Assembly (NCBI GenBank): GCA_041752275.1
Contig: JBGSHK010000008.1
Coordinates: 70,543-134,542, forward strand
Length of the DNA stretch: 64,000 nt
From: Minisyncoccia bacterium
GTDB taxonomy: Bacteria; Patescibacteriota; Minisyncoccia; Phycocordibacterales; CAIZLB01
Direction of reading: 5' to 3'
Shown: in pieces, positions 1,739 through 56,392 of the stretch
Numbering within the stretch: the first letter of the stretch is position 1
Layout: every line of letters begins with the position of its first letter
Notes under the pieces: model-generated
The model's input: only the letters and a program-made list of their open reading frames with translations
What the model was told of the DNA's origin: nothing
Database searches by the model: none
Program-made: the position numbers and the translations under genes

Positions 1739-3460
1739 ATGCAACAAGACATAATCAAATCAACAAAATTTATAATTTATTCACGTAAATCATCAGAGGA
1801 CTCATCTGATAAACAAGCACTGTCGATTCAGTCTCAAATCAATGAAAATAACAGACTTATTAAAAGGTATAATATCCCACAATCAAGTGTTGAATACATG
1901 CAAGAATCTAAGTCTGCTAAAAAGTCAGGTACAAGACCTATATTCAATAGTTTGGTCCAGAAAATAGAGAGTGGAAAGATCGACGGAATAATAGTCTGGC
2001 ATCCTGATAGACTATCAAGAAACGCAGGTGATGTTGGCAGGCTAATAGACCTCATGGATGACGGTAAACTAAAGTGCATAGTCACACATCAACAAACATA
2101 CTTAAACAGACCATCTGACAAAGCATTCTTTGGAATGATATGCACCCAAGCAAAGATGGAAAACGATAACAAAAGTGAAAATGTAAAAAGGGGATACAAA
2201 AGAAAATGCGAACTAGGATATTTGCCTACATCAGCCAAGGTTGGATACAAAAATGACTTCGGTGAAAAGGGCTATTGTAAAATGCTCGATGACCCCGAGA
2301 GATTGCCTCTTGTTCAAAAAGCCTTGAAGATGTTTCTAACAGGAAACTATTCTATAAACAGCATGTATGAAGTATGTAGGGATCAGTTAAAGATAGTAAC
2401 AGTTCAGAAAAGAAGATTGGGAGGTAGACCACTATCAAGATCGGCGGTCCATAACATGTTAAGGGATTCATTCTATGCGGGATTTTTCTATCACAAAGAC
2501 GAGTTCGGAGAAAGTATCAGATATGAGACAAACAAATCCCTGACCAGAATAATCACTGAAGCTGAACATTACAAGATACAAGCATTACTTGGAAACAGGG
2601 GTAAGCCAAAACCAAAGACATATGTAAAACAATTTCCATACAAGAGGTTTAGTAAAACACCTGACAACATACCTTTCACCGCAGAACCAAAGTTTCAAGT
2701 TATATGTCCAACATGTAAATACAAATTTGCATATCAAAACAAAACTCATTGTCCAAAATGTAATCTGAAAGTATTGGAGATGATAAATGCAAAGTATCTA
2801 GACTATGTGTACTATCACCCAATAAAAAGAGATACAGGCGGTCCAAAGAATGTCTGTATCACAGAAAAAGAGATCACCGAGCAAGTTCTGAAGCATTTTG
2901 ACAGTAGCTGGATAGCACACCCAGTTTTCACAGAATGGATCGTAGAAAAACTTAAAGAATCAGAGTCAGAAGAAAAACAACTACAAACAACCATCAAAGA
3001 TACAGTAAACAACCAAGTTGAAGACCTTAAGCTCAAACTAGACAAATTGACCGACATGAAGCTCCGAGACATGATAGATGATGACGAATTCTTGGCAAAA
3101 AAAGACGCTTTAAAGGCACAAATAAAGTCAGTCGAGCAAAGTAACGAGTATGGAGAAAAAACGCAATCTGAAGCCAAAATTGACCTCTACAGAGCCTTCT
3201 CGGTAACCCAGGACATAGAGAGTATATTGAAGAAAGGAGACTATGACGAGGTGGTGGAGCTACTCTCAATATTTGGTTCGAACCTAAAGATAAATGGAAA
3301 AGTAGTCAATGTTTACAACGATATTTTGATACAGAAAATCGAAAAGGCATTCTCTGAAATTAAACAGAAGAATGCCTTGTTCGAACCTAAAAATCTTCAG
3401 GATTTATCGGACTCAAATCCAGTTTTCGTGGATGTCCGTCCTGACTTGCTCCTCCGGTAG
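1739..3460 (+). CDS. Large serine recombinase (resolvase/invertase-type N-domain, recombinase domain, zinc ribbon, coiled coil).
   Basis: N-terminal YSRKSSEDSSDKQALSIQSQ and GIIVWHPDRLSR motifs. Cys4 ribbon CPTCKYKF...HCPKCN. C-terminal coiled-coil region. The last 12 nt including the stop lie within the tRNA-Asn 3' end. Confidence 0.85.
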   Translation: MQQDIIKSTKFIIYSRKSSEDSSDKQALSIQSQINENNRLIKRYNIPQSSVEYMQESKSAKKSGTRPIFNSLVQKIESGKIDGIIVWHPDRLSRNAGDVGRLIDLMDDGKLKCIVTHQQTYLNRPSDKAFFGMICTQAKMENDNKSENVKRGYKRKCELGYLPTSAKVGYKNDFGEKGYCKMLDDPERLPLVQKALKMFLTGNYSINSMYEVCRDQLKIVTVQKRRLGGRPLSRSAVHNMLRDSFYAGFFYHKDEFGESIRYETNKSLTRIITEAEHYKIQALLGNRGKPKPKTYVKQFPYKRFSKTPDNIPFTAEPKFQVICPTCKYKFAYQNKTHCPKCNLKVLEMINAKYLDYVYYHPIKRDTGGPKNVCITEKEITEQVLKHFDSSWIAHPVFTEWIVEKLKESESEEKQLQTTIKDTVNNQVEDLKLKLDKLTDMKLRDMIDDDEFLAKKDALKAQIKSVEQSNEYGEKTQSEAKIDLYRAFSVTQDIESILKKGDYDEVVELLSIFGSNLKINGKVVNVYNDILIQKIEKAFSEIKQKNALFEPKNLQDLSDSNPVFVDVRPDLLLR

Positions 3461-3520
3461 GGATCGAACCTACGACCAATCGCTTAACAGGCGACTGCTC
3501 TACCGCTGAGCTACAGAGGA
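3449..3520 (-). tRNA. tRNA-Asn (anticodon GTT). CCA is not encoded.
   Basis: Reverse complement reads TCCTCTG-TA-GCTC-AGCGGTA-GAGC-A-GTCGC-CTGTTAA-GCGAT-TGGTC-GTAGG-TTCGATC-CCTAC-CGGAGGA-G. Gives a 7-bp acceptor stem, D-, anticodon- and T-arms, and a GTT anticodon. Confidence 0.85.
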
Positions 3521-3635
3521 ATGAATTAGGATGGGCTGAAGTCTTTTCGATTAAATATACCCAGGGGGCATAATAAATGAAACAACCTCAACCCAACCTG
3601 TTGAAATATTATCAAAAAAACAGAGATAACGCAAT

Positions 3636-3995
3636 CTATACAATTTCCTTATCAACATGTCTTCCATAATCATCTTCAAGTCTGACTATATCATTTTCAT
3701 CAAATTCACCAAAGGCTATTTCCAAGACTTTCCCGGGTATATTTTTACCAATCAGTCTATGTGTCATGTTTTTTTCAATAATATACTCATCTCCGATTTT
3801 GACATCAATTTTTTTACCATCTATTTCAAAAATAGCTTCACCTTCAATTAATTTCCAAAATTCTTGTCTATTGTTGTGATACTGTAAACTTAATCTTTGA
3901 TTAGGTTTTATTGTTAATATTTTTACTGTACTTATTTCATTCTGTGTAAATATTTCTTCTGATCCCCAAGGTCTTTCATCGTATTTTATATTCAT
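3636..3995 (-). CDS. Cupin-type mannose-6-phosphate isomerase (stand-alone type II PMI cupin domain).
   Basis: RPWGSEEIF...LQYHNNRQEFWKLIEGEA matches the ManC/PMI cupin core. Confidence 0.6.
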   Translation of the reverse strand: MNIKYDERPWGSEEIFTQNEISTVKILTIKPNQRLSLQYHNNRQEFWKLIEGEAIFEIDGKKIDVKIGDEYIIEKNMTHRLIGKNIPGKVLEIAFGEFDENDIVRLEDDYGRHVDKEIV

Positions 3996-4014
3996 AGCTA
4001 TATTCTATCTTATT

Positions 4015-4770
4015 TTATTTAATATTAATAATATTTTTTATTATTTCTTTTGTTTCATTATGATCTTTGACTTTAATATAAGGTATTTCTGTTCTAACTA
4101 TGGAATAATCATTACCTCCTTCAAATATTGCATCACCGATAAACAATAGCTCTTCTTTTTTAAAATTGAGTAATTCTTCAATCTTGTTTATAGCATAACC
4201 TTTATCTATAGATTTTTTATTTATATCTATAGATGTTGATCCACCTATTTTAACTTCAAATTCTGGTAAATATTTATCTAAACATGCTTTTATCATCTTT
4301 CTTTTTTCCATGTTTTTATCCCATTCTTTTTTTAAATCTATAGGGGCTTGTTGTCCTAAAGCTGAAAAAGTAAACTGAGTATTTCTATCTTCGAGTCTTT
4401 CTCCATATATATCTTTTGGTAAAAAATCTATTTCAGCATACATTTTATCAAAACTATCTTTAATCTTTGTTTTTTCCTCTTCGTTAAAAGGATTTTCATA
4501 TACCTTACTCCACTTTTCATCAAAAGAATACATCATAGCCCCCGAAGTAGGAAATATATATAAGTTTTTAAATATTTTTTGATCACAATCTAACTTGTCT
4601 ACAACTTGTTTTTTTAACTGTTCAAAACCACCACCGCTTATAATGGCTACTTTTTTAATTTTTAATAATTCAATAAAAAGTAAAGACATGGCCATGTCAA
4701 TTTCCTGCTTGCTTTCAGTTAATGTGTCGTCCAAATCAAATACCACTACCTTAGTTTGAGTGAAATTCAT
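4015..4770 (-). CDS. HAD-superfamily phosphomannomutase (eukaryotic PMM/Sec53-like).
   Basis: N-terminal VVVFDLDDTLT phospho-Asp motif. C-terminal FIGDAIFEGGNDYSI resembles the PMM GDKT..GGNDYEI motif. Confidence 0.6.
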   Translation of the reverse strand: MNFTQTKVVVFDLDDTLTESKQEIDMAMSLLFIELLKIKKVAIISGGGFEQLKKQVVDKLDCDQKIFKNLYIFPTSGAMMYSFDEKWSKVYENPFNEEEKTKIKDSFDKMYAEIDFLPKDIYGERLEDRNTQFTFSALGQQAPIDLKKEWDKNMEKRKMIKACLDKYLPEFEVKIGGSTSIDINKKSIDKGYAINKIEELLNFKKEELLFIGDAIFEGGNDYSIVRTEIPYIKVKDHNETKEIIKNIINIK

Positions 4771-4843
4771 ATTTTGTAATTATAACTTTTTATTGATTAG
4801 TTGTAAACTTTGATTGTTTGTCGTATGATATTATCATAGTAAT

Positions 4844-6745
4844 ATGTTTATGTTTTTAAATACTAATAAAAAAAAATTTAAAATCAACAAAAAAATAGAC
4901 ACCACCCTACCTATAGGTTTTTTAAAGAAAGATAATGACTACTCAATATTTTGCAAATCATCCAATACGCCAGAGAATATATTTATTATAAAAAATAAAA
5001 AAGGGAATATAAATGAATTCTCAATAAATAAAGAAAAATTAAATATAAAAAATAAGCTTTTTAGGAGTAAATTAGATATAGATAAAATTGATAATGTTAT
5101 TTATTCTATAAATAAAAAAAAAGAAATCATAAACTTTATATATAAAGAAGATAAAAAGCAAAAACTTTATTTAGCAATCAAGAAAAATAAAAACGATTGG
5201 ATAATTCAAAATCAAGTTTTAGATATACAAGAGAGGGGTGGTTTAGTGTCTGACTATATCAACAATAAAAAATATTATATGTATTTTGGTGAATCAAATA
5301 TAAGTACAGCCAATACCTTAAATCTAAGTAAGTGGAATATTAGTCAAGATCCTGTTCTTAAGCCTAGACCAGGTTTTTTTGATAAAAGCAATTTAAAATT
5401 TCTAGCAACTAAAGTTATCGACAGAGGAATATTGGTTTTTTATGACGCTTCATATAAAGATAAAATAAGTAAAAAATTGAAAATACAAATAGGTTTAGCG
5501 ATGTTTTCTTTAAGTGATCCCAATAAAATAATCTGGAGATCTGATGATGCAATTTTTGAAAATGAAATATCATATGAAAAAGATTTTGAAGTAAAGGGTA
5601 TTATATTTGATCAAGATAATTTTACTATTTATTGGTATTCAAAAAAAACTGGTATATTGAGTGTTACTTTAAATTTACCTTTTAACAATAGTTTGAAGTT
5701 AGAATCATTTAAGAATCTAGAAAAGCATGATAATAATCCAATTATTTCACCGAATGATAACCATTCATTATCAACACAAAAGTGGCTATTAAATGGTACT
5801 TTTAATCCAACAGCTATTAATATTGATGAAAAAATTCATTTATTATTTCGTGCTGTTGGAGAAGATGGTATATCAAGAATTGGTTATTCTGAAAGTGTAG
5901 ATGGAGTTAATTTTGCAAACATTCATCCAAAACCTGTTTTTTCTTTAAAAAAATCTCACTTTGGAAATGGTCATATTAAAAATAAATATGACCCTGTGCT
6001 ATACGAATCTGGTGGTAGTTGGGGAGGTTGTGAAGATCCTAGACTTACAAAGATAGGTGACACTATATATATGATATTTAATGCTTTTGACGGTTGGGAT
6101 TTTATAAGGGTTGCATATACTTCCATAAAAGAGAAAGATTTTATAGATAAAAGATGGAATTGGGATAGACCTAGGCTAATTTCACCTCAAGGTGAGATAA
6201 ATAAAAATTGGGTTATATTCCCAGAAAAAATTAATGGGAAATTTGCAGTTTTACATAGCCTTACACCTAATATACAAATAGATTATTTAAAAAACTTAGA
6301 AGATCTAGAAATAGGTAAATCAAAAATAAAAAGTAAATATGAAAGAAAATTTAAATCAAAATCGTGGGATACTTGGGTACGTGGAGTAGGGCCAGCTCCA
6401 TTAAAAACACCTGAAGGTTGGTTAGTTTTTTATCATGCTGTCACAGCTGATGAAACCCATAAGTATAAACTTGGTGTTTTACTTTTAGATTTAAATGATC
6501 CTACAAAAATAATTTCAAGGGCAACTGCACCTATATTGACTCCTGACATGTGGTATGAAAATGATTCAAAGCCGGGTATAGTATATGCTTGCGGGGCCAT
6601 CATAAAAAAAGATATGTTATATATTTATTATGGCGGTGGTGATAAACATGTTTGTGTTGCCACCTCATCATTAAAAGAATTTATAGACAATTTAAAAAAT
6701 AGTAAAAATCAAACACCATCAATAAAAAAAGTGATATTGTCCTAA
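4844..6745 (+). CDS. GH130-family beta-mannoside phosphorylase/glycosidase-like protein. Degenerate N-terminal GH130-like half plus a complete C-terminal GH130 domain.
   Basis: GGCEDPRLTKIGDTIYMIFNAFDG catalytic-region motif. C-terminal block (LVFYHA...LLLDLNDPTKII) repeated in weaker form near the N-terminus (ILVFYDA...FSLSDPNKII). Confidence 0.6.
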   Translation: MFMFLNTNKKKFKINKKIDTTLPIGFLKKDNDYSIFCKSSNTPENIFIIKNKKGNINEFSINKEKLNIKNKLFRSKLDIDKIDNVIYSINKKKEIINFIYKEDKKQKLYLAIKKNKNDWIIQNQVLDIQERGGLVSDYINNKKYYMYFGESNISTANTLNLSKWNISQDPVLKPRPGFFDKSNLKFLATKVIDRGILVFYDASYKDKISKKLKIQIGLAMFSLSDPNKIIWRSDDAIFENEISYEKDFEVKGIIFDQDNFTIYWYSKKTGILSVTLNLPFNNSLKLESFKNLEKHDNNPIISPNDNHSLSTQKWLLNGTFNPTAINIDEKIHLLFRAVGEDGISRIGYSESVDGVNFANIHPKPVFSLKKSHFGNGHIKNKYDPVLYESGGSWGGCEDPRLTKIGDTIYMIFNAFDGWDFIRVAYTSIKEKDFIDKRWNWDRPRLISPQGEINKNWVIFPEKINGKFAVLHSLTPNIQIDYLKNLEDLEIGKSKIKSKYERKFKSKSWDTWVRGVGPAPLKTPEGWLVFYHAVTADETHKYKLGVLLLDLNDPTKIISRATAPILTPDMWYENDSKPGIVYACGAIIKKDMLYIYYGGGDKHVCVATSSLKEFIDNLKNSKNQTPSIKKVILS

Positions 6746-6762
6746 TTTATTAAAATAAAAAA

Positions 6763-8676
6763 ATGTTTACAGTTAAAAAATCTTTACATAATCCATTATT
6801 ATCACCAAACACAAATGATCCATGGGAGGCAAAGGCTGTTTTTAATTGGTGTCCTGTTAAAGATGGTTTAATAACTCATTATGTCTATAGAGCTATGTCT
6901 TCTCATGAATCATATTTTAATAATACAATAAGTATTTCATCGATCGGGTACACATCAAGTGTAAACGATATTGATTTTTCAGAAACAAAACAGCTTATTG
7001 CCCCAGAATATGATTGGGAAAAATTTGGTTGTGAAGATCCGAGAGTTACAAAAATTGATGATAAATTTTATATTTTTTATACAGCATTATCAAATTACCC
7101 ATTTGATTCCAATAGTATAAAGATTGCCGTGGCTGTAACCAAAGATTTTAAAACTATTGAGGAAAAACATTTGGTCACACCGTTTAATGCTAAAGCTATG
7201 GCATTATTCCCAGAAAAAATAAATGGTAAATATGTTGTTGTGTTATCAGTTAATACTGATATGCCACCAGCTAAGATTTGTTTTGCTGAATTTGATAACA
7301 TAGAAGATATTTGGAATCAAAAATATTGGCAAAAATGGTACAAAGAATTGGATAAACATAGTATAAACATAAGTCGTTCCGACAAAGATCATGTTGAGGT
7401 TGGGGCTGTGCCTTTAAAAACAGATAAAGGTTGGCTACTTGTTTATAGTCATATTGAAAATTATTTTAGAGACAATAATCCATATCCCCGAGTTTTTGGT
7501 ATTGAAGCCTTACTGCTAGATTTAAATGATCCAAAAAAAATAATAGGCATAACGAATTGGCCCATTATTGTACCAAATGAAGTTTATGAAAAAAACGGAC
7601 AATTTCCAGATATAGTTTTTCCTTCAGGTGCATCTATTGATAAAGAAAATTTAAATATTTACTACGGTGCAAGTGATACATTTTGTTGTAAGGCTACTAC
7701 AAATTTACAAAATCTTTTGAACAGTATGTCAGAAAAATCTATGACAGAATATGTTTTGAGATATAAAGACAATCCTATACTTAAACCGAGACCAAATATT
7801 GCTTGGGAGGCACATGGTGTATTTAATCCAGCCGTTCTTCAGGTTGGAAATAAAATAAGCATACTTTACAGAGCGATGTCGGATGACGACACCTCATATG
7901 TTGGATTTGCATCTACTACAGATGGATACAATATTATAAAAAGAGAAGATCAACCAATATATATACCAAGAGAGTCATTTGAAAATAAACGTCGACCTGG
8001 AAACTCAGGTTGTGAAGATCCACGTTTAACCCTTATCGATAAAAAAGTTTATATGTGTTATACCGCATACGATGGAGAAAACCCACCTAGAGTAGCTCTC
8101 ACATTTATAACTTTAAAAGATTTTGAAAAAAATAATTGGAATTGGAGTAAACCTATATTGGTTTCACCTGAAAATAAAGATGATAAAGACGCCTGTGTTT
8201 TTCCTGAAAAAATTAATGGAAAATATTTGATATTACATAGAATAAACGGAGATATTTGTGCTGATTTTGTAAAGTCATTAGATTTTCCTGATGGTCCATT
8301 AAAAACATCTACACCTATAATGTTACCAAGAAAGGGTATGTGGGATGCTGAAAAAATTGGTATTTCATCTCCGCCTATAAAAACAAAAAAAGGCTGGCTA
8401 TTGCTTTATCATGGTGTGTCATCTCAAAATCATATTTATAGAGTTGGCGTAGCTCTACTCGATTTAAAAAATCCATTGAAAGTTTTATCAAGAACAAGCG
8501 CACCAATATTTGAACCTGAAACATACTATGAAAAGGTTGGAATAATACCAAATGTAGTTTTTCCTTGCGGTGCTTGTATTAGAGATGAAAAAATATTTAT
8601 TTATTATGGCGGTGCTGACGATGTGGTTGGTGTGGCTACTGTTTCAGTTGAAAAAGTTTTACAGTCTTTATTATAA
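6763..8676 (+). CDS. Tandem double GH130-family glycoside phosphorylase-like protein.
   Basis: Two complete repeats, each with GCEDPR(V/L)T...Y..YTA and (L)LLDL(N/K)(D/N)P.K motifs. Confidence 0.65.
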   Translation: MFTVKKSLHNPLLSPNTNDPWEAKAVFNWCPVKDGLITHYVYRAMSSHESYFNNTISISSIGYTSSVNDIDFSETKQLIAPEYDWEKFGCEDPRVTKIDDKFYIFYTALSNYPFDSNSIKIAVAVTKDFKTIEEKHLVTPFNAKAMALFPEKINGKYVVVLSVNTDMPPAKICFAEFDNIEDIWNQKYWQKWYKELDKHSINISRSDKDHVEVGAVPLKTDKGWLLVYSHIENYFRDNNPYPRVFGIEALLLDLNDPKKIIGITNWPIIVPNEVYEKNGQFPDIVFPSGASIDKENLNIYYGASDTFCCKATTNLQNLLNSMSEKSMTEYVLRYKDNPILKPRPNIAWEAHGVFNPAVLQVGNKISILYRAMSDDDTSYVGFASTTDGYNIIKREDQPIYIPRESFENKRRPGNSGCEDPRLTLIDKKVYMCYTAYDGENPPRVALTFITLKDFEKNNWNWSKPILVSPENKDDKDACVFPEKINGKYLILHRINGDICADFVKSLDFPDGPLKTSTPIMLPRKGMWDAEKIGISSPPIKTKKGWLLLYHGVSSQNHIYRVGVALLDLKNPLKVLSRTSAPIFEPETYYEKVGIIPNVVFPCGACIRDEKIFIYYGGADDVVGVATVSVEKVLQSLL

Positions 8677-8713
8677 TTTTTAATGACAAAATCTTAAAAA
8701 TAGTGTATGGTAT

Positions 8714-10192
8714 ATGAATATGTCAACGAACTGGGGAGAATCAATTGTAAGTTTTGATGAGGTCTCATACTCTCATGTTAAAAATAAACCTATATTAACA
8801 GAGGCTTCATTCAACATACGTAAAAACGCCAAGATAACCCTTATGGGTCAAAACGGGGCAGGAAAGTCTACTATTTTTAAACTTATAACAGGAGAACTTG
8901 AAAACGATGAGGGAGATATAAATATAAAGAAAGATCTTACTATAGCTGTGTCTCGTCAGGTTATACCTCGCACGGAACTTGAGTTTACAGTTCGTGATTT
9001 TTTCCAAAATGTATTTGATAAAAAGATTTATGATATAGATCCTCGTATTGATGAAGTGTTGGGTATAGTACATCTAAAGGCTGATAAAGAAAAAAAGATA
9101 AAAGATTTTTCTGGAGGACAACAAGCTAGACTTTTACTTGCTCAAGCTTTGATACAAAAAGCAGATCTTATACTACTGGACGAACCTACAAACAATCTTG
9201 ATAAAGCAGGTATTGATCATTTAACAAAATTTTTAAAAGAATATACAAAAACAGTTATAGTTATTTCTCACGATGCAGACTTTTTAAATAGTTTTACTGA
9301 AGGAGTTATTTATCTTGATATACATACGCAAAAAGTTGAACAATATGTTGGTACTTATAACACGGTGGTAGCTGAGATATCAGCCCGTGTTGAAAAAGAA
9401 AGAAGAGCCAATGCTCAAGCTGAAAAGAAAATACAAGAAAATAAAGATAAAGCTAACTTCTTTGCTAACAAAGGAGGTGGTATGAGACTTGTGGCTAAGC
9501 GTATGCGTGAAGATGCAGAAGAGGCGGAAGAAAATATGGTTGATGTTAGAAGAGAAGATAAGACTATAAAACCTTTTACTATAGAATCACAACAAGATTT
9601 GTCTGGTATACTATTTTCTCTTTCATCTGTTGAAATCATGGACATACATAAAAATGATGGATCTTTAAAAACAAAAAAAGTTCATGTTGAACTTAGAAAA
9701 GGAGAGCATTTACTTTTGAAAGGACCAAATGGTATTGGTAAAACAACACTTTTGGAAAACTTAGCTGGAGGTCATGCTAAAGGTGAGGCTGTAAAAGAGG
9801 GTGTGAAGATAGGATATTATAGACAAGATTTTTCAAACTTGGATTTTGATAAATCAGCATATGACATCATAAAAGAATGTGCAGATAAAGATGACAGTGA
9901 GCATTTTATAAGAAAAACATTGGCACAGTTTTTGATAGCGGGGGATGCAGCTTATACTCCTATTGGTCGTTTGTCAGAGGGTCAAAAGGGATTAGTTGCT
10001 TTCGCTAGACTTGTGGCACTTCGCCCAGGACTGCTTATACTTGATGAGCCAACAAACCATATAAACTTCCGTCACCTTCCAGTGATAGCAGAATCTTTGA
10101 AAAAGTTTCAAGGTGCCATGATAGTGATATCTCACATGCAAGAGTTTGTTGATCAGATTGGGATTGAGACGACACTTGACCTCAGTAAATAA
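8714..10192 (+). CDS. ABC-F family ATPase (two fused ABC domains, no TM domain).
   Basis: Walker A GQNGAGKST and GPNGIGKTT. Signatures FSGGQQARL and LSEGQKGLV. Walker B LLDEPTNNLD and LILDEPTNHI. Confidence 0.8.
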   Translation: MNMSTNWGESIVSFDEVSYSHVKNKPILTEASFNIRKNAKITLMGQNGAGKSTIFKLITGELENDEGDINIKKDLTIAVSRQVIPRTELEFTVRDFFQNVFDKKIYDIDPRIDEVLGIVHLKADKEKKIKDFSGGQQARLLLAQALIQKADLILLDEPTNNLDKAGIDHLTKFLKEYTKTVIVISHDADFLNSFTEGVIYLDIHTQKVEQYVGTYNTVVAEISARVEKERRANAQAEKKIQENKDKANFFANKGGGMRLVAKRMREDAEEAEENMVDVRREDKTIKPFTIESQQDLSGILFSLSSVEIMDIHKNDGSLKTKKVHVELRKGEHLLLKGPNGIGKTTLLENLAGGHAKGEAVKEGVKIGYYRQDFSNLDFDKSAYDIIKECADKDDSEHFIRKTLAQFLIAGDAAYTPIGRLSEGQKGLVAFARLVALRPGLLILDEPTNHINFRHLPVIAESLKKFQGAMIVISHMQEFVDQIGIETTLDLSK

Positions 10193-10318
10193 ATTTATAA
10201 GTTTTGATCTAGCTTTGTTTCGAAGTATTTTTTGAGAAAATCAGAATTTAGAATTTCTTTGGCAATTTTACGGTTATTCTTTATGAGAATTTCATGATTG
10301 TTTTGATATTGTTTTTAT

Positions 10319-10720
10319 ATGAATAATAAAAACTACGATCAGTGGAATATTTTAAAAAAGAGAATAAATTTTTCCCATAGAAAAATACATTATCCAAAAA
10401 TTAGAGAAATCTGGTGGATTAACATAGGTTTAAATGTTGGTTCTGAAATATATGGAAAAACAGATCAATACACTAGACCTGTTTTAATATTGAAAATACA
10501 CAATAATATGTTTATCTGTTTACCTATATCCAGTAAGATAAAAAAGGGTAGATTTAAGTTTAAGATTTATACAGATGATTTAAAGTGTCATTGTGTAATT
10601 TTTGATCAAATTCGAGTTTTTGATAGAAAAAGATTTATTAAAAGAAAGTATACAATATCTAAAAATAAATTTAAGAGAATTATAAGAAAATTTAAAAATA
10701 TGATAACCACCGGTGTTTAG
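10319..10720 (+). CDS. PemK/MazF-family toxin-like protein with no adjacent antitoxin ORF.
   Basis: REIWWINIGLNVGSE...TRPVLIL and FICLPISSK align with the MazF GDLIWVDFDPTKGSE...HRPAVVLS / CLCVPCTT blocks. Confidence 0.5.
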   Translation: MNNKNYDQWNILKKRINFSHRKIHYPKIREIWWINIGLNVGSEIYGKTDQYTRPVLILKIHNNMFICLPISSKIKKGRFKFKIYTDDLKCHCVIFDQIRVFDRKRFIKRKYTISKNKFKRIIRKFKNMITTGV

Positions 10721-10818
10721 TCGGTGGTTATTCGGCCCGAGGGCAAAGAGAGGTTAACTCCCATGTGTATATAATATCAAATATTCAAAGCATGTCAAAT
10801 CCGTGATATAATATAAAA

Positions 10819-12537
10819 ATGTTTAAATTCTTAAAAAGACTATTCGAGCCTGCTTTAAATAGAAAAATGAAATCATTCAAACTGGTTTCAGATGCATTTA
10901 TTTCATATCTTTGGTATGATCTTATACCTATAATATCTATTCCAATATTGATTGGTTATATAAACAATGGTGAATATGGTAACATACAAAAATTTTCTCT
11001 TATTATATTACTTATAACTATTATACTTTGGGTTGTGGGAACATTTACAGTTCGTTGGCAGGTTGATGCAAGATATGCTTATGAGATTTATTCAGTCAAC
11101 AAGTATTTTAGAAAAAGTATTTTAAAAAATCCGACTGCGATGGAAAAGATTGGTTCTGGAAAATTGCAATCTATTATAAAAACAGGTATAAGAAATTGGA
11201 CAACAGTAAACGCAAATATACTTTACGGTTTAACTCGTGTTATAACAGGTGTAGGAACAGGTATATATATCCTTATAAACTTTGATGCAAAATACATACC
11301 ATATTTTATTCTTGTAGTTATAGTTTCTTGTACAGGATATTATTATTTTGGAAAAAAGAAACTTAAACATGATGAAAGAGCTATAGATATGGAAAATGAG
11401 ATGGATAAAGATTATGTTCGTGTGATGATGTCTAGACAAGAAGTTATTTTGAGTGTGAACGAGAATAAAGAAAGTGAAAATATAATTTCCATAACAAAAA
11501 AACAATCAAAAGAGGATAGAATAAGTTCTGTTTATAAACATTTATCAGAACTCTTTACCGCAGGTATTTCAGTTATTCTGCCGGTACTCGGCGTTATGTT
11601 TATTATTCAAGACATAGAATTAAACCCTGTTAATGCGGCATTTTTAGTATCATTTATCTATTTTACGACTCGTTTTACAGGTACTTTGTATAATATGGTG
11701 TGGGTAGTAAGTCAGGTATTTGATTCTTATCCAAAAATAAAAAAGTTATGGAACTTTCTTGATGCGACTGCAGATTTTGAAAACTATTATAAAGGTGATA
11801 AGTTTCAACACGGAAATGGTTCTATAGAATTAAATAATATTAACTTTTCTTATGATGACAAAAAAATATTAGATAATTTTAATCTTAAAATAAATGGCGG
11901 GCAAAAAATAGCTTTTGTTGGAAAATCAGGCTCAGGTAAAACGACTATTGCTAAGCTTATTACTGGATTTGTAACTCCACAAGAAGGTCAAGTTCTTATA
12001 GACAGCCAAGATTTATCTCGTACTGCACTTAAGACATATTATCCTTATGTTGGGTATCTTACACAAAAACCGATGGTTTTTGATGGAACTATAAAAAATA
12101 ACTTGCTATATTCTTTATCTGATAAAGTCGCGAGTACGATAACTGATCAACAACTATATGAAGCACTTAAAAATGCAGAGTGTGATTTTATAACAGACTT
12201 AAATGCCGAAATAGGTGAAAAAGGTATAAGGCTTTCAGGTGGAGAAAGACAGAGATTGGCTATTGCAAAACTGATGCTTAAAAATCCGGAGATTATTATA
12301 CTTGATGAACCAACGTCGGCACTAGACTCGTTTTCTGAAGAAGCTATAACTCGAGCACTTGATCGTTTGTTTAAAAATAAAACAGTTATCATTATTGCAC
12401 ATAGACTACAAACTGTTAAAAAAGCAGATACTATTGTAGTACTTGAACATGGAAAGATTATTGAGCAAGGAACAAGTTTGGAGTTGATAGAAAAGGGTGG
12501 GCAGTACAAGAGAATGCTAGAATTACAAAGCTTTTAA
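10819..12537 (+). CDS. ABC exporter, fused permease-ATPase (MsbA/MdlB-like).
   Basis: N-terminal multi-TM region. Walker A GKSGSGKTT, signature LSGGERQRLAIAK, Walker B IILDEPTSALD. Confidence 0.8.
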   Translation: MFKFLKRLFEPALNRKMKSFKLVSDAFISYLWYDLIPIISIPILIGYINNGEYGNIQKFSLIILLITIILWVVGTFTVRWQVDARYAYEIYSVNKYFRKSILKNPTAMEKIGSGKLQSIIKTGIRNWTTVNANILYGLTRVITGVGTGIYILINFDAKYIPYFILVVIVSCTGYYYFGKKKLKHDERAIDMENEMDKDYVRVMMSRQEVILSVNENKESENIISITKKQSKEDRISSVYKHLSELFTAGISVILPVLGVMFIIQDIELNPVNAAFLVSFIYFTTRFTGTLYNMVWVVSQVFDSYPKIKKLWNFLDATADFENYYKGDKFQHGNGSIELNNINFSYDDKKILDNFNLKINGGQKIAFVGKSGSGKTTIAKLITGFVTPQEGQVLIDSQDLSRTALKTYYPYVGYLTQKPMVFDGTIKNNLLYSLSDKVASTITDQQLYEALKNAECDFITDLNAEIGEKGIRLSGGERQRLAIAKLMLKNPEIIILDEPTSALDSFSEEAITRALDRLFKNKTVIIIAHRLQTVKKADTIVVLEHGKIIEQGTSLELIEKGGQYKRMLELQSF

Positions 12538-12547
12538 TCAAAAAAAC

Positions 12548-13684
12548 ATGAAATACTTCCTCATATCAACATTTATACTCATAAACATTTTAACTCTAAA
12601 ACCTGCGCACGCAGAAGAGTTATATGTTGACTATCAAGGTACTTTTAAGGCCAAGATTTTAACAATATCAGAAGGTAGAGAAGAAAATATAGGCTTCTCT
12701 GATGTCTTGGCAAAATATCAAAACCTGGAAGTTAAGTTTTTAAACGGACCTAAGAAAGATCAAACTATAGCTTTTGAATCTGATTTTCCAAATATAAAAG
12801 AAGGTCAAAAAATATATATAAATTACAATATAAACTCTGGAAATGATGTTTACACTATTACAAATATAGATAGAGTAAATTCTATATTATTTTTTGTATT
12901 ACTTTTTATATTGATAATAATATTGTTCGGTGGCTGGCAAGGTTTTAGATCCGTCATCTCTCTAGGTTTTTCTTTTGTTGCGATATTTTACATACTTTTA
13001 CCAATACTTCTAAAAGGTTATAACCCTATATTGTCGAGTTTTGTCATAGCTGCTGCTATACTGTTTTTAGCCATATTTTTCACACATGGTTTTAACAAAG
13101 AGTCAGGCGTTGCTTATGGTGGAACCATGATAGCTGTATTACTTACATCTCTCCTGGCCATGGCTGCTGTTAAAATAACAAATCTTTCAGGTTTTACAGG
13201 TGATGAGTCAACGTATCTAAATATGAATACTGGAGGTGTACTTGATTTCTCCGGCTTGCTCTTGGCAGCTATGATAGTTGGTGTACTAGGAGTATTGGAT
13301 GATATTGCTGTGACGCAAGCATCTGTAGTGACTGAACTTTTCCACACAGATAGATCTTTGACCAGAAGACAAGTTTATCTCAAAGCTATAAGGGTTGGAA
13401 AAGAGCATGTGTCAGCTTTGGTAAATACTTTAGTCTTGGCTTATGTTGGTACAGCTTTACCTTTGTTACTTCTCATAAAAACATATGGATATGATATGCA
13501 AACAATACTCAATATGGAAGGTGTTTCAACCGAGATTATAAGAGCTATAGTTGGAAGTATTGGTTTGATTATGACTGTACCTATTGTGACTTTGCTGGCT
13601 GTGTTTTATTTGAAAAATTATGAACATAAGAAAGATAGAAAAGGGCATGGGCATAGTCACTCTCACAGTCACTCACACCAATAA
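12548..13684 (+). CDS. Polytopic membrane protein (YibE/F-like) with a secreted N-domain and a C-terminal (HS)n His-rich tail.
   Basis: Signal peptide, then a soluble domain, then about 6-7 TM helices. C-terminus KGHGHSHSHSHSHQ. Confidence 0.4.
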   Translation: MKYFLISTFILINILTLKPAHAEELYVDYQGTFKAKILTISEGREENIGFSDVLAKYQNLEVKFLNGPKKDQTIAFESDFPNIKEGQKIYINYNINSGNDVYTITNIDRVNSILFFVLLFILIIILFGGWQGFRSVISLGFSFVAIFYILLPILLKGYNPILSSFVIAAAILFLAIFFTHGFNKESGVAYGGTMIAVLLTSLLAMAAVKITNLSGFTGDESTYLNMNTGGVLDFSGLLLAAMIVGVLGVLDDIAVTQASVVTELFHTDRSLTRRQVYLKAIRVGKEHVSALVNTLVLAYVGTALPLLLLIKTYGYDMQTILNMEGVSTEIIRAIVGSIGLIMTVPIVTLLAVFYLKNYEHKKDRKGHGHSHSHSHSHQ

Positions 13685-13727
13685 AATATTTTCAAAATAG
13701 TCAAAAAAAGGTTATAATATAACCAAC

Positions 13728-33583: not shown

Positions 33584-33904
33584 ATGAATAATATTAATTA
33601 TCGAAATGAACTTTTGCATCACAAGCTACATAGACATGCAAAACATCATGTTCATAGACTTCGAGGTAAGTCAGAGGCACATAGAAAAGCCTTTGCTTTT
33701 TCTTTTGCTTTTACTATAACTTTTGTTATTTTTACACTTTGGTATTTTTTATCTCTACCAAAGATATTGGAAAGTTATGAGGTTACCAAGTCTGAAAATG
33801 AAAGGTTAAATGAAGATATTTTTGGTAAATTAAAAAATGCATTTACAGGATCGGATATAGAAAGTGGTGGATTAAATATAGAAATTAGTGAATATAATAA
33901 ATAA
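33584..33904 (+). CDS. Small membrane protein with a His-rich N-terminus.
   Basis: HHKLHRHAKHHVHRLRG followed by one TM helix. Confidence 0.3.
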   Translation: MNNINYRNELLHHKLHRHAKHHVHRLRGKSEAHRKAFAFSFAFTITFVIFTLWYFLSLPKILESYEVTKSENERLNEDIFGKLKNAFTGSDIESGGLNIEISEYNK

Positions 33905-51542: not shown

Positions 51543-52292
51543 TTAAACAGATTTTTTTAAATATTCTAAATCTTCCGGTGTGTTAATGGTTAATATCTCA
51601 TCTTTGTCAACGATTTCAAAAGAAACATTTTTGAATTGATTGATTGCTACTTCAATTATCCTGCTAACTGCATATTCACCATTTGGCAGTTGTGGTATCA
51701 AATGTTTATTGTTCTCAAAATAATATTTATTTAAACAAATTATTCCTGTACCAGATAAGTGTCCATATTCACCAATTTCTTCTTTATTTACAGGTCTGAC
51801 ACCTAAAACTCTTTTTTTATCTGTTAGATATCCAACCTTATGTAACCCTTCATTAAACTCTCTTGTTAAAAGTAAACTAACCATAGCTTTTGTGCTTGTG
51901 TGTGTTTTAATTAACCTCTCTAATGTTTGAGGTTTAAGAAACCAGCCATTATCAGCAGGTAAAACTAAAACTAGATCAGTATTATTTGAAATTTTATTCA
52001 TTCCTGAAACAACAGCACCTAAAGTACCGTCTAAAATTTCCTGTATGGCAAATAAAATATTTGACAAATGATTTAAATTTTTTTTTACATGGTCTTCAAC
52101 ATCTTTAGATTTATAACCAATTACAATTATAATATTTTCAATTTTTAATTTGCTTACCGTATTAATAATTTTAACTAGAATAGATTGATTCTTAATTGTT
52201 GTAAGTGGTTTAGGAATTTGCCCACCCAATCTAGTACCTTTTCCTGCGGCCATTATTATTACAGATGTTTTTTTATCATTAATCATAGACAT
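51543..52292 (-). CDS. IspD/TarI/LicC-like cytidylyltransferase (NTP_transferase fold).
   Basis: N-terminal VIIMAAGKGTRLGGQIPKPL matches the AAG.G.R...PKQ signature. Overlaps the upstream gene by 14 nt, so probably one operon. Confidence 0.6.
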   Translation of the reverse strand: MSMINDKKTSVIIMAAGKGTRLGGQIPKPLTTIKNQSILVKIINTVSKLKIENIIIVIGYKSKDVEDHVKKNLNHLSNILFAIQEILDGTLGAVVSGMNKISNNTDLVLVLPADNGWFLKPQTLERLIKTHTSTKAMVSLLLTREFNEGLHKVGYLTDKKRVLGVRPVNKEEIGEYGHLSGTGIICLNKYYFENNKHLIPQLPNGEYAVSRIIEVAINQFKNVSFEIVDKDEILTINTPEDLEYLKKSV

Positions 52293-55348: not shown

Positions 55349-56392
55349 ATGTTCACAGACTTACTTTCACTTATATTTAACAGAAACCTATCGACAAGAA
55401 AAATAGAATTTGCTTTTATAGTCCACCCCAGAAACACATATGACATTTTTCGTAAATACAAATTACTAAAAATATTTCCCAAAAAGGTTGTTGATTTATT
55501 TCTACTAATAATGTGGCCGACATACGGGGGAAGTATAAAAATTGATCAAGGTGAAAAAGGTACTAAGTGGGGAGCAATTATAATAAGTCCTTTGACAGGT
55601 AAACAGATGTTAAGATACAGAAAACTAGCTGCAAACACTGTGTTTATGGCTAGTAAGCTGGCTAAAATATATGGTTCAAAAGTTATAGGATTAGGTGCAC
55701 TTACGTCAGTTGTCACAGACGGGGGAATATATGTGAGTGATAAACTAAAAGGTTTACATTTTACATCAGGTAACGGCTTAACTGCAGCAACAACATCAAA
55801 CGATATTTTAAGAATAATAAAAGATAAAAATATTACAGGACCGATATCTGTTATTGGTGCCACTGGATCAATAGGAAAGGGTATAACAAAAGTTTTGGAT
55901 GAAGGTTGTAAAAATGATTTGATATTAATCGGAAAAAATAAAGAAAGAACAATTGGTCTGGCTCATGAGTTGTCAAGAAATAATGTTATTTGTACAACTG
56001 ACATAGAAGAAAATAACAAAGCTGAAATAGTTATTGTTACAACAAGTGCAAATGGAGCAATAATTGATCATCATTTATTAAAAAATGCTAAAATAATATA
56101 TGATATAACTCAGCCAAAAAATACTCCTGATCACATAATGGAAGGTGATGCTATATCATATATAGATGGTGGCTTAATACAGTTACCTGAAAATATCAGA
56201 ATAGGTATGGACATAAGTTTACCAAAAGGAATTGCTTTTTCTTGTCTTTCTGAAACCCTGCTTATAGCCATATCAGAAAAATATTACCTAAAATCAGAAA
56301 AAGATTTAAAAATTGAAAACATTAAAGAATTGTCTAAATTAGCAATGGAAAATAATTTTAATTCTTATTTAATCCAAAATGGAAATAAATAA
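55349..56392 (+). CDS. NAD(P)-binding oxidoreductase, acyl-ACP reductase (AAR)-like / amino-acid dehydrogenase-like.
   Basis: Rossmann motif VIGATGSIGKGITKVL at mid-protein. AAR-like length and layout. Confidence 0.4.
   Translation: MFTDLLSLIFNRNLSTRKIEFAFIVHPRNTYDIFRKYKLLKIFPKKVVDLFLLIMWPTYGGSIKIDQGEKGTKWGAIIISPLTGKQMLRYRKLAANTVFMASKLAKIYGSKVIGLGALTSVVTDGGIYVSDKLKGLHFTSGNGLTAATTSNDILRIIKDKNITGPISVIGATGSIGKGITKVLDEGCKNDLILIGKNKERTIGLAHELSRNNVICTTDIEENNKAEIVIVTTSANGAIIDHHLLKNAKIIYDITQPKNTPDHIMEGDAISYIDGGLIQLPENIRIGMDISLPKGIAFSCLSETLLIAISEKYYLKSEKDLKIENIKELSKLAMENNFNSYLIQNGNK

Follow-up and report, generated by a model that had tools for sequence, protein, structure and literature searches.

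Two divergent gene pairs between positions 3636 and 8676 of the window, the 64,000-nucleotide stretch of Patescibacteria DNA analysed here, raise the question of whether they encode a route by which beta-mannosides are phosphorolysed and fed into glycolysis, and of which of their GH130 modules could carry out such a reaction. An earlier note on this DNA had read them as a cupin PMI, a HAD-type PMM and two genes with two GH130 modules each. All four of the open reading frames that it claimed were borne out, two on the minus strand and two on the plus strand, and are divided here as follows.

3636-3995, minus strand: cupin gene, 119 aa
4015-4770, minus strand: HAD gene, 251 aa
4771-4843, no strand: divergent intergenic region between the HAD gene and gene A, 73 bp, 19.2% GC, presumed bidirectional promoter region
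4844-6745, plus strand: GH130 gene A (modules A1 and A2), 633 aa
4844-5713, plus strand: module A1, gene A residues 1-290, predicted GH130-fold five-bladed propeller, pseudo-enzyme domain
5714-6745, plus strand: module A2, gene A residues 291-633, GH130 with intact sugar site and rewired phosphate site
6763-8676, plus strand: GH130 gene B (modules B1 and B2), 637 aa
6763-7740, plus strand: module B1, gene B residues 1-326, GH130 with intact sugar site and dismantled phosphate pocket
7741-8676, plus strand: module B2, gene B residues 327-637, canonical beta-1,2-mannoside phosphorylase-like GH130

Pfam searches assigned a PMI-type cupin, a PMM-like HAD protein and three GH130 modules, and at this level the proposed family memberships hold for all but A1. 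PF04041 (cut-off 26 bits) matched two stretches in gene B, with E-values of 7.8e-40 (137.2 bits) for B1 and 5e-62 (210.1 bits) for B2 when the gene was split, and one in gene A at residues 293-618, which corresponds to A2 (E 5.8e-40, 137.6 bits). The motifs GCEDPR and LLDLNDP.KII, cited earlier as GH130-like, are present in the translations. Among NCBIfam models, the best for both genes is beta-1,2-mannobiose phosphorylase (NF052550), although neither reaches its equivalog cut-off of 450 bits: gene A scores 217 bits and gene B 432 bits, the latter a whole-protein score summed over two modules. Against a model of the mannosidase BT3780 the scores are 119 bits for gene A and 202 bits for gene B. 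No hydrophobic N-terminal stretch usable as a signal peptide was found in either product.

Each module was then compared with characterised enzymes at the positions that define catalysis. The proton donor was taken as the Asp (UhgbMP D104) of the G-x-E/Y-D-P-R motif; the phosphate Arg as UhgbMP R168, equal to Uhgb_MS R202 and located 18 residues after the +1-site Lys/Arg; and the phosphate His and Tyr as UhgbMP H231 and the Tyr of the Y-R/K-x-G strand. Four phosphate contacts, Lys, Arg, His and Tyr, have been named for the GH130-type fold. The test for beta-1,2 linkage was a Glu beside the proton donor together with a Lys at the UhgbMP R150 position, a pair used by Li et al. 2020 to predict GH130 beta-1,2 specificity. 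In the Uhgb_MS numbering frame, onto which the modules were mapped, the corresponding residues are E136, D137, K184, R202 and R242.

As judged from these residues, B2 is the only one of the four modules to keep the full canonical set of phosphate contacts. Its proton donor is D419 and its beta-1,2 pair E418 and K475; N355, R370, E418, D419, K475, R493, H550 and Y559 are present in 80/80 B2 species modules and D619 in 79/80. Through this half, gene B matches the solved structures 9fj8 (Teth514_1788) with an E-value of 2e-61 and 7fip (Teth514_1789, a beta-1,2-mannobiose phosphorylase) with an E-value of 2e-58 over residues 332-632.

The sugar site of A2 is likewise intact, with conserved N321, R336, E397, D398, K454, H531, Y541 and D600, including an invariant proton donor (D398), an invariant Glu/Lys pair (E397 and K454) and the phosphate-site His and Tyr (H531 and Y541). 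The canonical phosphate-binding Arg is missing, since position 472 (codon 6257-6259) is Ser; across 77 A2 species modules this position is S in 41, N in 20, A in 5, G in 4 and R in 7. Position 513, which adjoins the equivalent of Uhgb_MS R242 and lies one strand away from the canonical Arg, covaries with it: Arg513 occurs in 70/70 modules lacking Arg472, and 7/7 modules with Arg472 carry K512 and L, V or I at 513. This covariation could reflect as few as two or three evolutionary events; it suggests that the anion site of A2 is still complete, with Arg513 as a possible substitute for the canonical Arg.

In B1 the sugar-site residues N28, R43, E91, D92, K144 and D305 are invariant, among them the proton donor (D92) and the beta-1,2 pair (E91 and K144), a pattern more in keeping with catalysis than with a purely structural function. 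The phosphate-Arg position 162 is Ser (T39, S35, A4 and G1 among 79 species modules), the His position 229 is Ser (74 of 79) followed by H230, and the Tyr position 245 is Phe (77 of 79). A Glu specific to B1, E248, is nearly invariant (77/79), and in the AlphaFold2 (AF2) model residues 180-199 form a helical insertion that follows the strand on which the Arg is normally found. The AF2 model of the whole of gene B (pLDDT 94.6, pTM 0.90) indicates that its product would form a fixed two-propeller unit.

The first module of gene A had been called degenerate, and it is: A1 gave no Pfam match even at E<=10, so that the GH130 test with PF04041 failed at the level of sequence, and it lacks the catalytic Asp. 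Comparison of family profiles with hhalign nevertheless related A1 to B2 with a probability of 99.2% and an E-value of 1.5e-19 over 247 columns, and in this alignment the proton-donor Asp is replaced by Asn84 and the phosphate-site His by Asp201. The AF2 model of A1 (pLDDT 92.7, pTM 0.88) was searched with Foldseek, and its best 35 PDB matches were all GH130 (E down to 8e-14, TM 0.63-0.70), the nearest being the beta-1,2-mannosidases BT3780 and BACOVA_03624. The residues conserved within A1 itself (R175, F179, D180, Y200, G217, W231 and R232) align to structural fold motifs, and the module is found in 25/71 A-type genes. By profile and predicted structure, A1 is a true GH130-fold propeller whose catalytic Asp has been lost. 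A residue check module by module thus yields a full canonical site in B2 and altered sites in A2, B1 and A1.

The HAD protein is PMM-like, as had been noted (PF03332 PMM, E 9.5e-13, 48.9 bits against a cut-off of 22.4; TIGR01484 HAD-IIB, E 1.3e-19, 71.2 against 41.8 bits). Its motifs FDLDDT (the DxDxT nucleophile) and GGNDY are visible in the translation, and FD(L/V)DGTL, GD...GGND and other HAD motifs are conserved in 29 operon-linked homologues. It shares fold family and motifs with both eukaryotic PMM1/PMM2 and the L. lactis PgmH/APGM. The closest solved relative is the latter, Lactococcus lactis alpha-phosphoglucomutase (4bnd; E 2.4e-35 over residues 6-249), whereas solved eukaryotic PMMs reach only about 1e-14; membership of the PMM family stands, but because of this distance the specificity implied by the label PMM is a guess from context. 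The Lactococcus enzyme acts on glucose phosphates and reportedly does not use mannose phosphates, while the genomic context of the window protein points to mannose phosphates. In three loci a classical PGM/PMM phosphohexomutase (PGM_PMM_I-III) occupies the HAD slot, which supports a hexose-phosphate mutase step but no particular sugar. We propose the HAD protein as a putative mannose-1-phosphate/mannose-6-phosphate mutase of the eukaryotic-PMM/PgmH family.

The claimed PMI core of the cupin was recovered by PF01050 (MannoseP_isomer; E 2e-20, 73.5 bits against a cut-off of 23.6), with a further match to Cupin_2 (E 1.3e-8). Against TIGR01479 (GMP_PMI; the AlgA, XanB and ManC type) it aligned only to C-terminal positions 361-467 of 467 (E 2.4e-17) and remained below the bifunctional equivalog cut-off (62.9 versus 372.95 bits) because it lacks the nucleotidyltransferase domain. 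It thus resembles the C-terminal cupin of type II PMI/GMP enzymes in profile region and conserved motifs, but is free-standing at 119 aa. Across 49 operon-linked homologues the cupin retains RPWG, SLQxHxxRxEFW, a later His and DIxRxxDxYGR, and its nearest match among solved structures is 7zvm (E 7e-7), a protein of 113 aa whose deposited name is 'mannose-6-phosphate isomerase'. These features suggest a mannose-6-phosphate isomerase of the kind that forms the C-terminus of type II PMI/GMP enzymes; the literature yielded no stand-alone cupin of such size with demonstrated PMI activity.

The base composition of the block is less extreme than the 20-25% GC previously given, at 28.6% against 31.2% for the window; values that low occur only in A1 (22.6%) and in the 73-bp stretch between the divergent genes, and gene B stands at 31.8%. 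The best match of a sigma-70-like scan (11/12) lies in this intergenic stretch on the minus strand (4807-4779), and two 9/12 matches lie there on the plus strand. Since the scan as a whole was not above shuffles (37 matches versus 35.7 expected), this is weak evidence for a promoter. The locus belongs to the core chromosome, outside a neighbouring tRNA-Asn integrative element. No transporter adjoins it in the 64-kb window, the adjacent ABC protein being an ABC-F translation factor.

The four genes represent, in this genome, an operon that is conserved among ultra-small Patescibacteria. The fused B1-B2 gene occurs in at least 590 species genomes, the best 80 loci being all Patescibacteria-like, and an A2-type gene lies directly upstream in 71/72 loci. 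A cupin is found near the GH130 genes in 44/63 loci (70%), usually on the same strand and directly upstream of them and across a wide span of Patescibacteria, and a PMM-like HAD in 25/63; 17/63 have neither within 6 kb. The gene set recurs in relatives whose gene B identity ranges from 86% down to about 52%, indicating that the genes belong together. Natural fusions of the types A2-B1-B2, A1-A2-B1-B2 and A2-B2 exist. The fused GH130 pair and the stand-alone cupin, both earlier considered unusual architectures, are therefore the rule within Patescibacteria. Two loci have phosphoketolase, acetate kinase and PPDK among their neighbours, and two others have MFS transporters; 4/6 loci with annotated neighbours have no adjacent transporter. 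In 25/80 loci the operon is headed by a cytidylyltransferase-like nucleotidyltransferase, whose best NCBIfam match, below threshold, is a manno-heptose-1-P adenylyltransferase domain. The operon is also kept in very small genomes.

The sequence of GH130 followed by PMM and PMI was stated as a metabolic logic for Bacteroides by Chiku et al. 2014 (PMC4264767). We consider it somewhat better than an even chance that the present operon serves cytoplasmic beta-1,2-mannoside turnover, with phosphorolysis feeding glycolysis. B2 would convert beta-1,2-mannobiose or oligomannan and phosphate to alpha-mannose-1-phosphate with no ATP spent, and A2 probably does the same by means of its relocated arginine. 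The HAD-type phosphohexomutase would then form mannose-6-phosphate, and the stand-alone cupin fructose-6-phosphate for central carbon metabolism. A1 and B1 would be GH130 propellers no longer able to hold phosphate, most likely fixed partners of the active propellers that stand in for the second subunit of the homodimers which characterised beta-1,2 enzymes form; B1 may still bind the mannoside chain. Family membership, residue patterns and their conservation, gene linkage and a confident two-propeller model are supported directly. Of the pathway as originally read, the families and the gene linkage stand and the beta-1,2 signature lends support, while the phosphate sites in three of four modules and the label PMM call for correction. 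From this evidence we infer the substrate, which way the flux runs, the activity of each protein and what A1 and B1 contribute. We know of no beta-1,2-mannan source for these organisms.

The same genes could instead build and mobilise an intracellular beta-1,2-mannan reserve, like Leishmania mannogen, with PMI and mutase running towards mannose-1-phosphate, A2 and/or B1 acting mainly as mannosyltransferases with mannose-1-phosphate or nucleotide-mannose as donor, and B2 releasing mannose-1-phosphate when carbon is needed. Every step is reversible, GH130 beta-1,2 enzymes make oligomannan from mannose-1-phosphate (PMC4264767), and weak GDP-Man transferase activity has been published for beta-1,2 GH130 phosphorylases. 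A published decision tree moreover assigns a short L2 loop with only three phosphate contacts, the canonical count in A2, to a 'transferase with no or very weak phosphorylase activity', and the cytidylyltransferase-like gene at the head of some operons, the scarcity of adjacent transporters and the retention in very small genomes all fit such a cycle. Mutation of the very Arg that A2 lacks argues the opposite, however: in Uhgb_MS, R202A lowered phosphorolysis 16-fold but abolished transfer (PMC12814180). In GT108 the Arg/His position alone does not decide activity, the switch lying largely outside the active site; Arg513 suggests a full anion site in A2; and B1 lacks three of the four phosphate contacts, which a nucleotide-sugar donor needs too. 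The window holds no cytidylyltransferase-like gene, its sole nucleotidyltransferase resembling the GlmU N-terminal domain. We regard this cycle as unlikely, though deserving of consideration.

Less likely again is a mixed system in which B1, perhaps along with A2, would act as a beta-1,2-mannosidase, with water in place of phosphate like the GH130 hydrolases of Bacteroides, and trim substrates for B2. Beta-1,2-mannosidase activity has been demonstrated for GH130 enzymes that lack the basic residues for phosphate binding, and B1 lacks Arg, His and Tyr yet retains an invariant proton donor and sugar site, together with its own E248. The known hydrolases, however, have carboxylates in place of the basic residues, whereas the Arg position is Ser/Thr in B1 and Ser/Asn in A2, and the second basic position is His/Gln in B1 and Arg in A2; no Asp or Glu occurs at the Arg or R242-equivalent position of either module, the equivalence to BT3780 E227/E268 being by residue spacing only. 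Three residues further along the strand than the Tyr position, E248 faces the other way; it pairs with an Arg-to-Gly change two residues before it, and looks like a structural swap. The phosphorylase model outscores the BT3780 model for both genes, and hydrolysis would waste the ATP-saving advantage in a fermenting organism. It is also improbable, and the least favoured of these readings, that the accessory genes lack mannose specificity. The HAD protein would then be a general alpha-phosphoglucomutase and the cupin not a PMI, with no defined route from mannose-1-phosphate to fructose-6-phosphate. The HAD protein is indeed nearest to alpha-phosphoglucomutase by 20 orders of magnitude in E-value, no activity data for stand-alone cupins of this type came to light in the literature, and more than a quarter of loci (the 17/63 above) have neither gene nearby. 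Against this stand the frequent and widespread cupin-GH130 linkage, the PMI-domain motifs of the cupin and the replacement of the HAD gene by a classical PGM/PMM in three loci. PMM-family HAD enzymes, moreover, commonly accept both mannose and glucose phosphates.

Cytoplasmic phosphorolysis, the reading preferred here, can be set beside several known systems. The mannosidases BT3780 and BACOVA_03624 (Cuskin et al. 2015, PMC4599007) share the Lys that determines beta-1,2 specificity and are missing basic phosphate residues, as are B1 and, at the canonical Arg, A2; in the mannosidases Glu replaces these residues and some are secreted, whereas B1 and A2 have small polar residues and no signal peptide. 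Uhgb_MS and Lin0857 (GH130_4 beta-1,2-mannobiose phosphorylase/synthase; PMC12814180) have the same fold and the catalytic Glu-Asp, Lys and Arg and form dimers whose interface includes loop L2, and R242 of Uhgb_MS has been placed at the donor phosphates in the same study. The window modules lack the 48-residue GH130_4 lid loop, HMMER alignments to 5b0p and 9eqq beginning after it, and A2 and B1 lack R202. The Leishmania GT108 enzymes MTP1-7 (PMC10913872; cited in PMC12814180), likened here by description, are GH130-like propellers acting on beta-1,2-mannan whose paralogues differ in phosphate-site residues and divide synthesis and phosphorolysis between them, but they are eukaryotic single modules of another CAZy family.

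The closest parallel is Thermoanaerobacter sp. X-514, whose 1,2-beta-oligomannan phosphorylase Teth514_1788 (9fj8) and Teth514_1789 (7fip) rank first among solved structures for A2, B1 and B2. They share with the window modules the Glu/Lys signature and the short-loop type without the GH130_4 lid, and in both systems at least two adjacent GH130 units are cytoplasmic and linked to mannose-phosphate metabolism. Teth514_1788 is dimeric, as is Uhgb_MS, and in both loop L2 sits at the interface between active sites. Each of the two Thermoanaerobacter enzymes is a single-module protein in its own right, about 300 aa long and with a full phosphate site, whereas the window modules are fused in pairs, with altered phosphate sites in two of three catalytic-looking modules and one module dead. 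The Thermoanaerobacter cluster contains an ABC importer, GH5, mannose-1-P guanylyltransferase and GT4 and was proposed to feed GDP-mannose synthesis (PMC4264767), unlike the window operon, whose partners are a predicted mutase and isomerase. The multi-propeller GH130 architecture is an uncharacterised variant that is common in its lineage.

The four open reading frames that the earlier note had placed in the mannoside locus were confirmed at the following positions.

3636-3995, minus strand: cupin, 119 aa; PF01050 (PMI C-terminal domain), E 2e-20
4015-4770, minus strand: HAD protein, 251 aa; PF03332 (PMM), E 9.5e-13; NCBIfam HAD-IIB
4844-6745, plus strand: gene A (modules A1 and A2), 633 aa; one GH130 stretch, residues 293-618
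6763-8676, plus strand: gene B (modules B1 and B2), 637 aa; two GH130 stretches

For both genes A and B the top NCBIfam model was beta-1,2-mannobiose phosphorylase, with a score under the equivalog cut-off. The "extremely low" GC content of 20-25% ascribed to the block was overstated: the block has 28.6% GC versus 31.2% for the window, and values that low occur only in the 73-bp intergenic region between the divergent genes (19.2%) and in the first 870 bases of gene A (22.6%). A scan of positions 3400-8900 gave promoter matches no better than those in shuffled sequences, and no terminator.

The active sites of the modules were compared with those of characterised GH130 enzymes. In UhgbMP, the diagnostic positions are the proton donor D104 and the phosphate binders R168 and H231, while the +1 subsite is formed by R59, Y103, R150 and D304; the Y103 position is Glu in beta-1,2/1,3 enzymes and the R150 position is Lys in beta-1,2 enzymes (Li et al. 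2020). The equivalents in Uhgb_MS are E136, D137, K184, R202 and R242 (2025 ACS Catalysis paper, PMC12814180), and four phosphate contacts, Lys, Arg, His and Tyr, are named in work on GT108 (PMC10913872). Residues were mapped by HMMER alignments to 9eqq (a GH130_4-type structure), 9fj8 (Teth514_1788) and 7fip (Teth514_1789), using main-text residue numbers (PMC12814180), and a second time by a joint alignment of the A2, B1 and B2 families.

Active-site residues of the four GH130 modules (module; sugar site and E/K pair; canonical phosphate contacts).
B2; complete (R370, E418, D419, K475, D619); K475, R493, H550 and Y559 all kept
A2; complete; K454, H531 and Y541 kept, Arg position 472 is Ser
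B1; complete (N28, R43, E91, D92, K144, D305); K144 only
A1; lost, proton donor included; lost

At the other phosphate positions of B1, Arg is replaced by S162, His by S229 (followed by H230) and Tyr by F245. The same active-site pattern was found in 116 database relatives of gene B and 107 of gene A, and the patterns of A2, B1 and B2 are, as judged from these alignments, family traits rather than local mutations. Among modules from 80 species genomes, B2 keeps Arg, His and Tyr in 80 of 80, while in B1 the Arg position is Thr (39), Ser (35), Ala (4) or Gly (1), the His position is Ser in 74 and the Tyr position is Phe in 77. In A2 the Arg position is occupied by Ser (41), Asn (20), Ala (5), Gly (4) or Arg (7). 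All 70 A2 modules lacking Arg472 have Arg513, and all seven with Arg472 have the canonical Lys512, with Leu, Val or Ile at 513. Position 513 adjoins the equivalent of Uhgb_MS R242, a residue assigned to the donor phosphates (PMC12814180). The phosphate-binding arginine of A2 thus appears to have been relocated to another strand, at position 513, and on this reading of the 472/513 covariation A2 probably still binds phosphate; since the seven Arg472 exceptions may represent only two or three lineages, independent swaps between the two positions are few. The residues of B1 do not fit the phosphorylase pattern or, as far as residue spacing shows, that of known hydrolases, and a transferase pattern is not obvious, since a nucleotide-sugar would also require the phosphate contacts lost in B1. 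The invariant Glu248 of B1 was considered as a catalytic base and thought unlikely from its strand position.

Module A1 (residues 1-290 of gene A) gave no match in a Pfam search even at E<=10, and BLASTP aligned it only weakly with gene B, over 91 residues (E 2e-8). A profile built from 68 A1 homologues aligned to the B2 family profile over 247 columns with a probability of 99.2% (E 1.5e-19). The AF2 model of A1 is all-beta (pLDDT 92.7, pTM 0.88), and its best 35 PDB neighbours are GH130 structures throughout, with E down to 8e-14 and TM of ∼0.7. The claim of four GH130 domains therefore holds at the level of the fold, A1 being placed by profile alignment, AF2 model and PDB neighbours. In the A1/B2 profile alignment the proton-donor Asp corresponds to Asn84 and the phosphate-site His to Asp201, and the residues that A1 conserves (R175, D180, Y200, G217, W231 and R232) are structural motifs common to the GH130 fold. 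Since the catalytic positions are replaced and the conserved residues belong to the fold, A1 is predicted to be a maintained yet catalytically dead propeller. The A1-coding part of gene A (4844-5713) is more AT-rich than the rest of the gene (22.6% versus 30.6% GC) and encodes many Lys, Asn and Ile residues, a composition that fits a relaxed constraint on its sequence, though not on its fold.

Database relatives of gene B number in the thousands; the best 120 are nearly all 630-660 aa long with full coverage, and those with a named source fall in Patescibacteria groups. When one genome per species was scanned, at least 590 carriers of the fused B1-B2 gene were identified; the best 80 loci lie in Paceibacteria-, Nomurabacteria-, Wolfebacteria- and Moranibacteria-type genomes and in a few bins labelled otherwise. 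When the ORFs at these loci were typed with purpose-built module HMMs, an A2-type gene was found directly upstream of B1-B2 in 71 of the 72 loci whose upstream DNA was long enough; A1 accompanies it in 25 of these and is missing from 46. Of 63 loci, 44 have the cupin, 25 a PMM-like HAD and 17 neither. Only a handful of GH130-GH130 proteins were in CAZy in 2018 (Li et al. 2020). By these distribution and linkage counts the fused GH130 pair and the free cupin, which the earlier note had called unusual architectures, are normal for the lineage. Natural fusion proteins also occur, namely A1-A2-B1-B2 (1110 aa; P0024), A2-B1-B2 (971-996 aa; P0034, P0036 and P0039) and A2-B2 (∼700 aa; P0161, P0164, P0171, P0173, P0182 and P0184), which suggests that the modules work as one assembly.

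Other features vary among the related loci. An extra ORF of 183-198 aa lies between the A2 and B1-B2 genes, or overlaps their junction, at L048 and L050, and a 347-aa ORF that falls outside the cluster of these ORFs is found at the same junction in L031; such an ORF may represent a small inserted gene, if it is not a spurious frame. Phosphoketolase, acetate kinase and PPDK genes flank two loci, and MFS transporters flank two others. A cytidylyltransferase-like gene (PF01467) stands first in the operon at 25 of 80 loci. Its product, of ∼160 aa, is encoded on the same strand directly upstream of the mutase, cupin and GH130 genes (L019, L024, L031, L034, L036-L038, L042 and others), and its top NCBIfam match, under threshold, is the D-glycero-beta-D-manno-heptose-1-phosphate adenylyltransferase domain. 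Such a protein could make nucleotide-mannose. No gene of this kind was found in the 64-kb window.

The cupin aligns with bifunctional PMI/GMP models over their C-terminal PMI part alone, and its motifs RPWG, SLQxHxxRxEFW, a later His and DIxRxxDxYGR are kept in 49 operon-linked homologues. Among solved structures it is closest to a 113-aa protein deposited under the name mannose-6-phosphate isomerase, for which the search brought up no evidence of activity; the citing paper found deals with pressure adaptation. The HAD protein carries PMM-family motifs and matches L. lactis alpha-phosphoglucomutase (4bnd) with E 2.4e-35, versus ∼1e-14 for eukaryotic PMMs. The L. lactis enzyme (PgmH) is reportedly specific for glucose phosphates. 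In three related operons (L048, L050 and L076) the HAD slot holds a classical PGM_PMM_I-III alpha-D-phosphohexomutase of ∼535 aa, an apparent non-orthologous replacement, and since this enzyme fills the same slot, a hexose-phosphate mutase step is predicted to belong to the system. The slot is also occupied by a Cof-type HAD (∼252 aa) at ten loci, including L019, L054, L056, L064 and L066, and by a DUF1361 membrane protein (∼216 aa) at L044, L053, L068 and L071, with six loci in the cluster. No Cof-type HAD, DUF1361 or classical PGM/PMM gene of these kinds was found in the 64-kb window.

To the left, between the block and the gene for a large serine recombinase (1739-3460; Resolvase and Recombinase domains), lies a tRNA-Asn gene (3448-3520, minus strand); the end of the recombinase gene overlaps the 3′ end of the tRNA. 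Small ORFs lie upstream of the recombinase, one of them (1104-1682) encoding a small HTH protein. In the alignment with L002, a related locus whose gene B is 86% identical, homology begins exactly at the tRNA 3′ end and continues rightwards, and the left side is unrelated. The recombinase region is thus an element inserted at tRNA-Asn, with its left end outside the window, and the same alignment places the mannoside locus in the core chromosome. A mobile-element or horizontal origin of the block was rejected, since the recombinase lies beyond tRNA-Asn, the neighbouring genes are kept in L002 and the GC content is near the window mean. The neighbouring ABC protein (8714-10192) was considered as a mannoside importer and discarded, as it is an ABC-F protein without a membrane domain. 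Three genes occupy 10193-13727, between the ABC-F and SMC genes: a PemK/MazF-like toxin (10319-10720), beside which no obvious antitoxin ORF was called, an ABC exporter (10819-12537) and a YibE/F membrane protein (12548-13684) with a terminal His-Ser repeat tail, HGHSHSHSHSHQ. Since ABC-F is followed directly by SMC in L002, this region is either an insertion in the window or a deletion in L002.

Elsewhere the window carries the housekeeping genes usual for a bacterium with a small genome. A likely cell-surface protein of 793 aa (33888-36269) combines five DUF5122 beta-propeller repeats with a Big_13 Ig-like domain and, at the C-terminus, a peptidoglycan-binding domain. At 51543-54594 on the minus strand, the gene for a 249-aa nucleotidyltransferase (GlmU N-terminal domain-like) overlaps by 14 bases that for a 771-aa protein with no Pfam domain and weak similarity to Bud32-type kinases. 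Two adjoining 548-aa histidine kinases (56379-58025 and 58027-59673), both 7TM-HisKA-HATPase, look like a tandem duplication; beside the pair, no response regulator was seen.

In the mechanism that we propose, B2 would be a canonical beta-1,2-mannoside phosphorylase and A2 probably another such enzyme, its phosphate site rewired. The Man-1-P released would pass through the mutase and isomerase to Fru-6-P, a route described for other GH130 systems (PMC4264767). Since neither gene A nor gene B product has a signal-peptide-like N-terminus, the chemistry would be cytoplasmic. Beta-1,2 enzymes that have been characterised form dimers in which loop L2 sits between the active sites (PMC12814180). The AF2 model shows the whole gene B product as one rigid body with high confidence (pLDDT 94.6, pTM 0.90) and sets a helical insertion of B1 exactly at the location of loop L2; the mannoside-binding site of B1 is predicted to be intact. 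We infer that B1 and A1 would replace the second subunit of the dimer.

Other roles for these proteins were weighed against this mechanism. B1 is possibly a hydrolase, but at the positions matched by residue spacing its sequence lacks the carboxylate signature, and the possibility that the mutase and cupin serve a non-mannose role fits the linkage data poorly. A cycle of internal beta-1,2-mannan synthesis and mobilisation, to which the published decision tree and the cytidylyltransferase-like gene lend some support, is considered unlikely in view of the R202A result in Uhgb_MS (PMC12814180) and the Arg513 covariation in A2. We think it quite improbable that Patescibacteria hold an internal beta-1,2-mannan reserve, as a bacterial counterpart of Leishmania mannogen, that would be synthesised by A2 and/or B1 and mobilised phosphorolytically by B2, the fused and dead propellers forming an obligate hetero-oligomeric machine; the donor for synthesis would then be Man-1-P or, in many lineages, nucleotide-mannose from the cytidylyltransferase-like enzyme.

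Patescibacteria have tiny genomes with few sugar-active enzymes. Retention of a three- or four-propeller GH130 set in at least 590 species, usually with the isomerase and often with the mutase, suggests that beta-1,2-mannosides are an important source or reserve of carbon in a large, mostly uncultivated branch of bacteria. Literature on GH130 or mannobiose/oligomannan phosphorylases in Patescibacteria gave passing mentions, and no description of these proteins was found. The pathway logic and the GH130 family were already known; the architecture, for which no description was found in the literature, combines a fused canonical and altered propeller, a partner gene whose arginine appears relocated, a dead propeller that is optional, and wide conservation in Patescibacteria. 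Natural variants of the GH130 phosphate site occur together at the locus, with an apparently moved arginine (A2), a sugar site without a phosphate site (B1) and a dead propeller (A1), all fused or linked to a canonical phosphorylase, and these bear on the question of how the phosphorylase, transferase and hydrolase activities of GH130 and GT108 are set apart. The pairing of A2 with B2 recalls the two Thermoanaerobacter enzymes, which differ in chain-length preference (PMC4264767).
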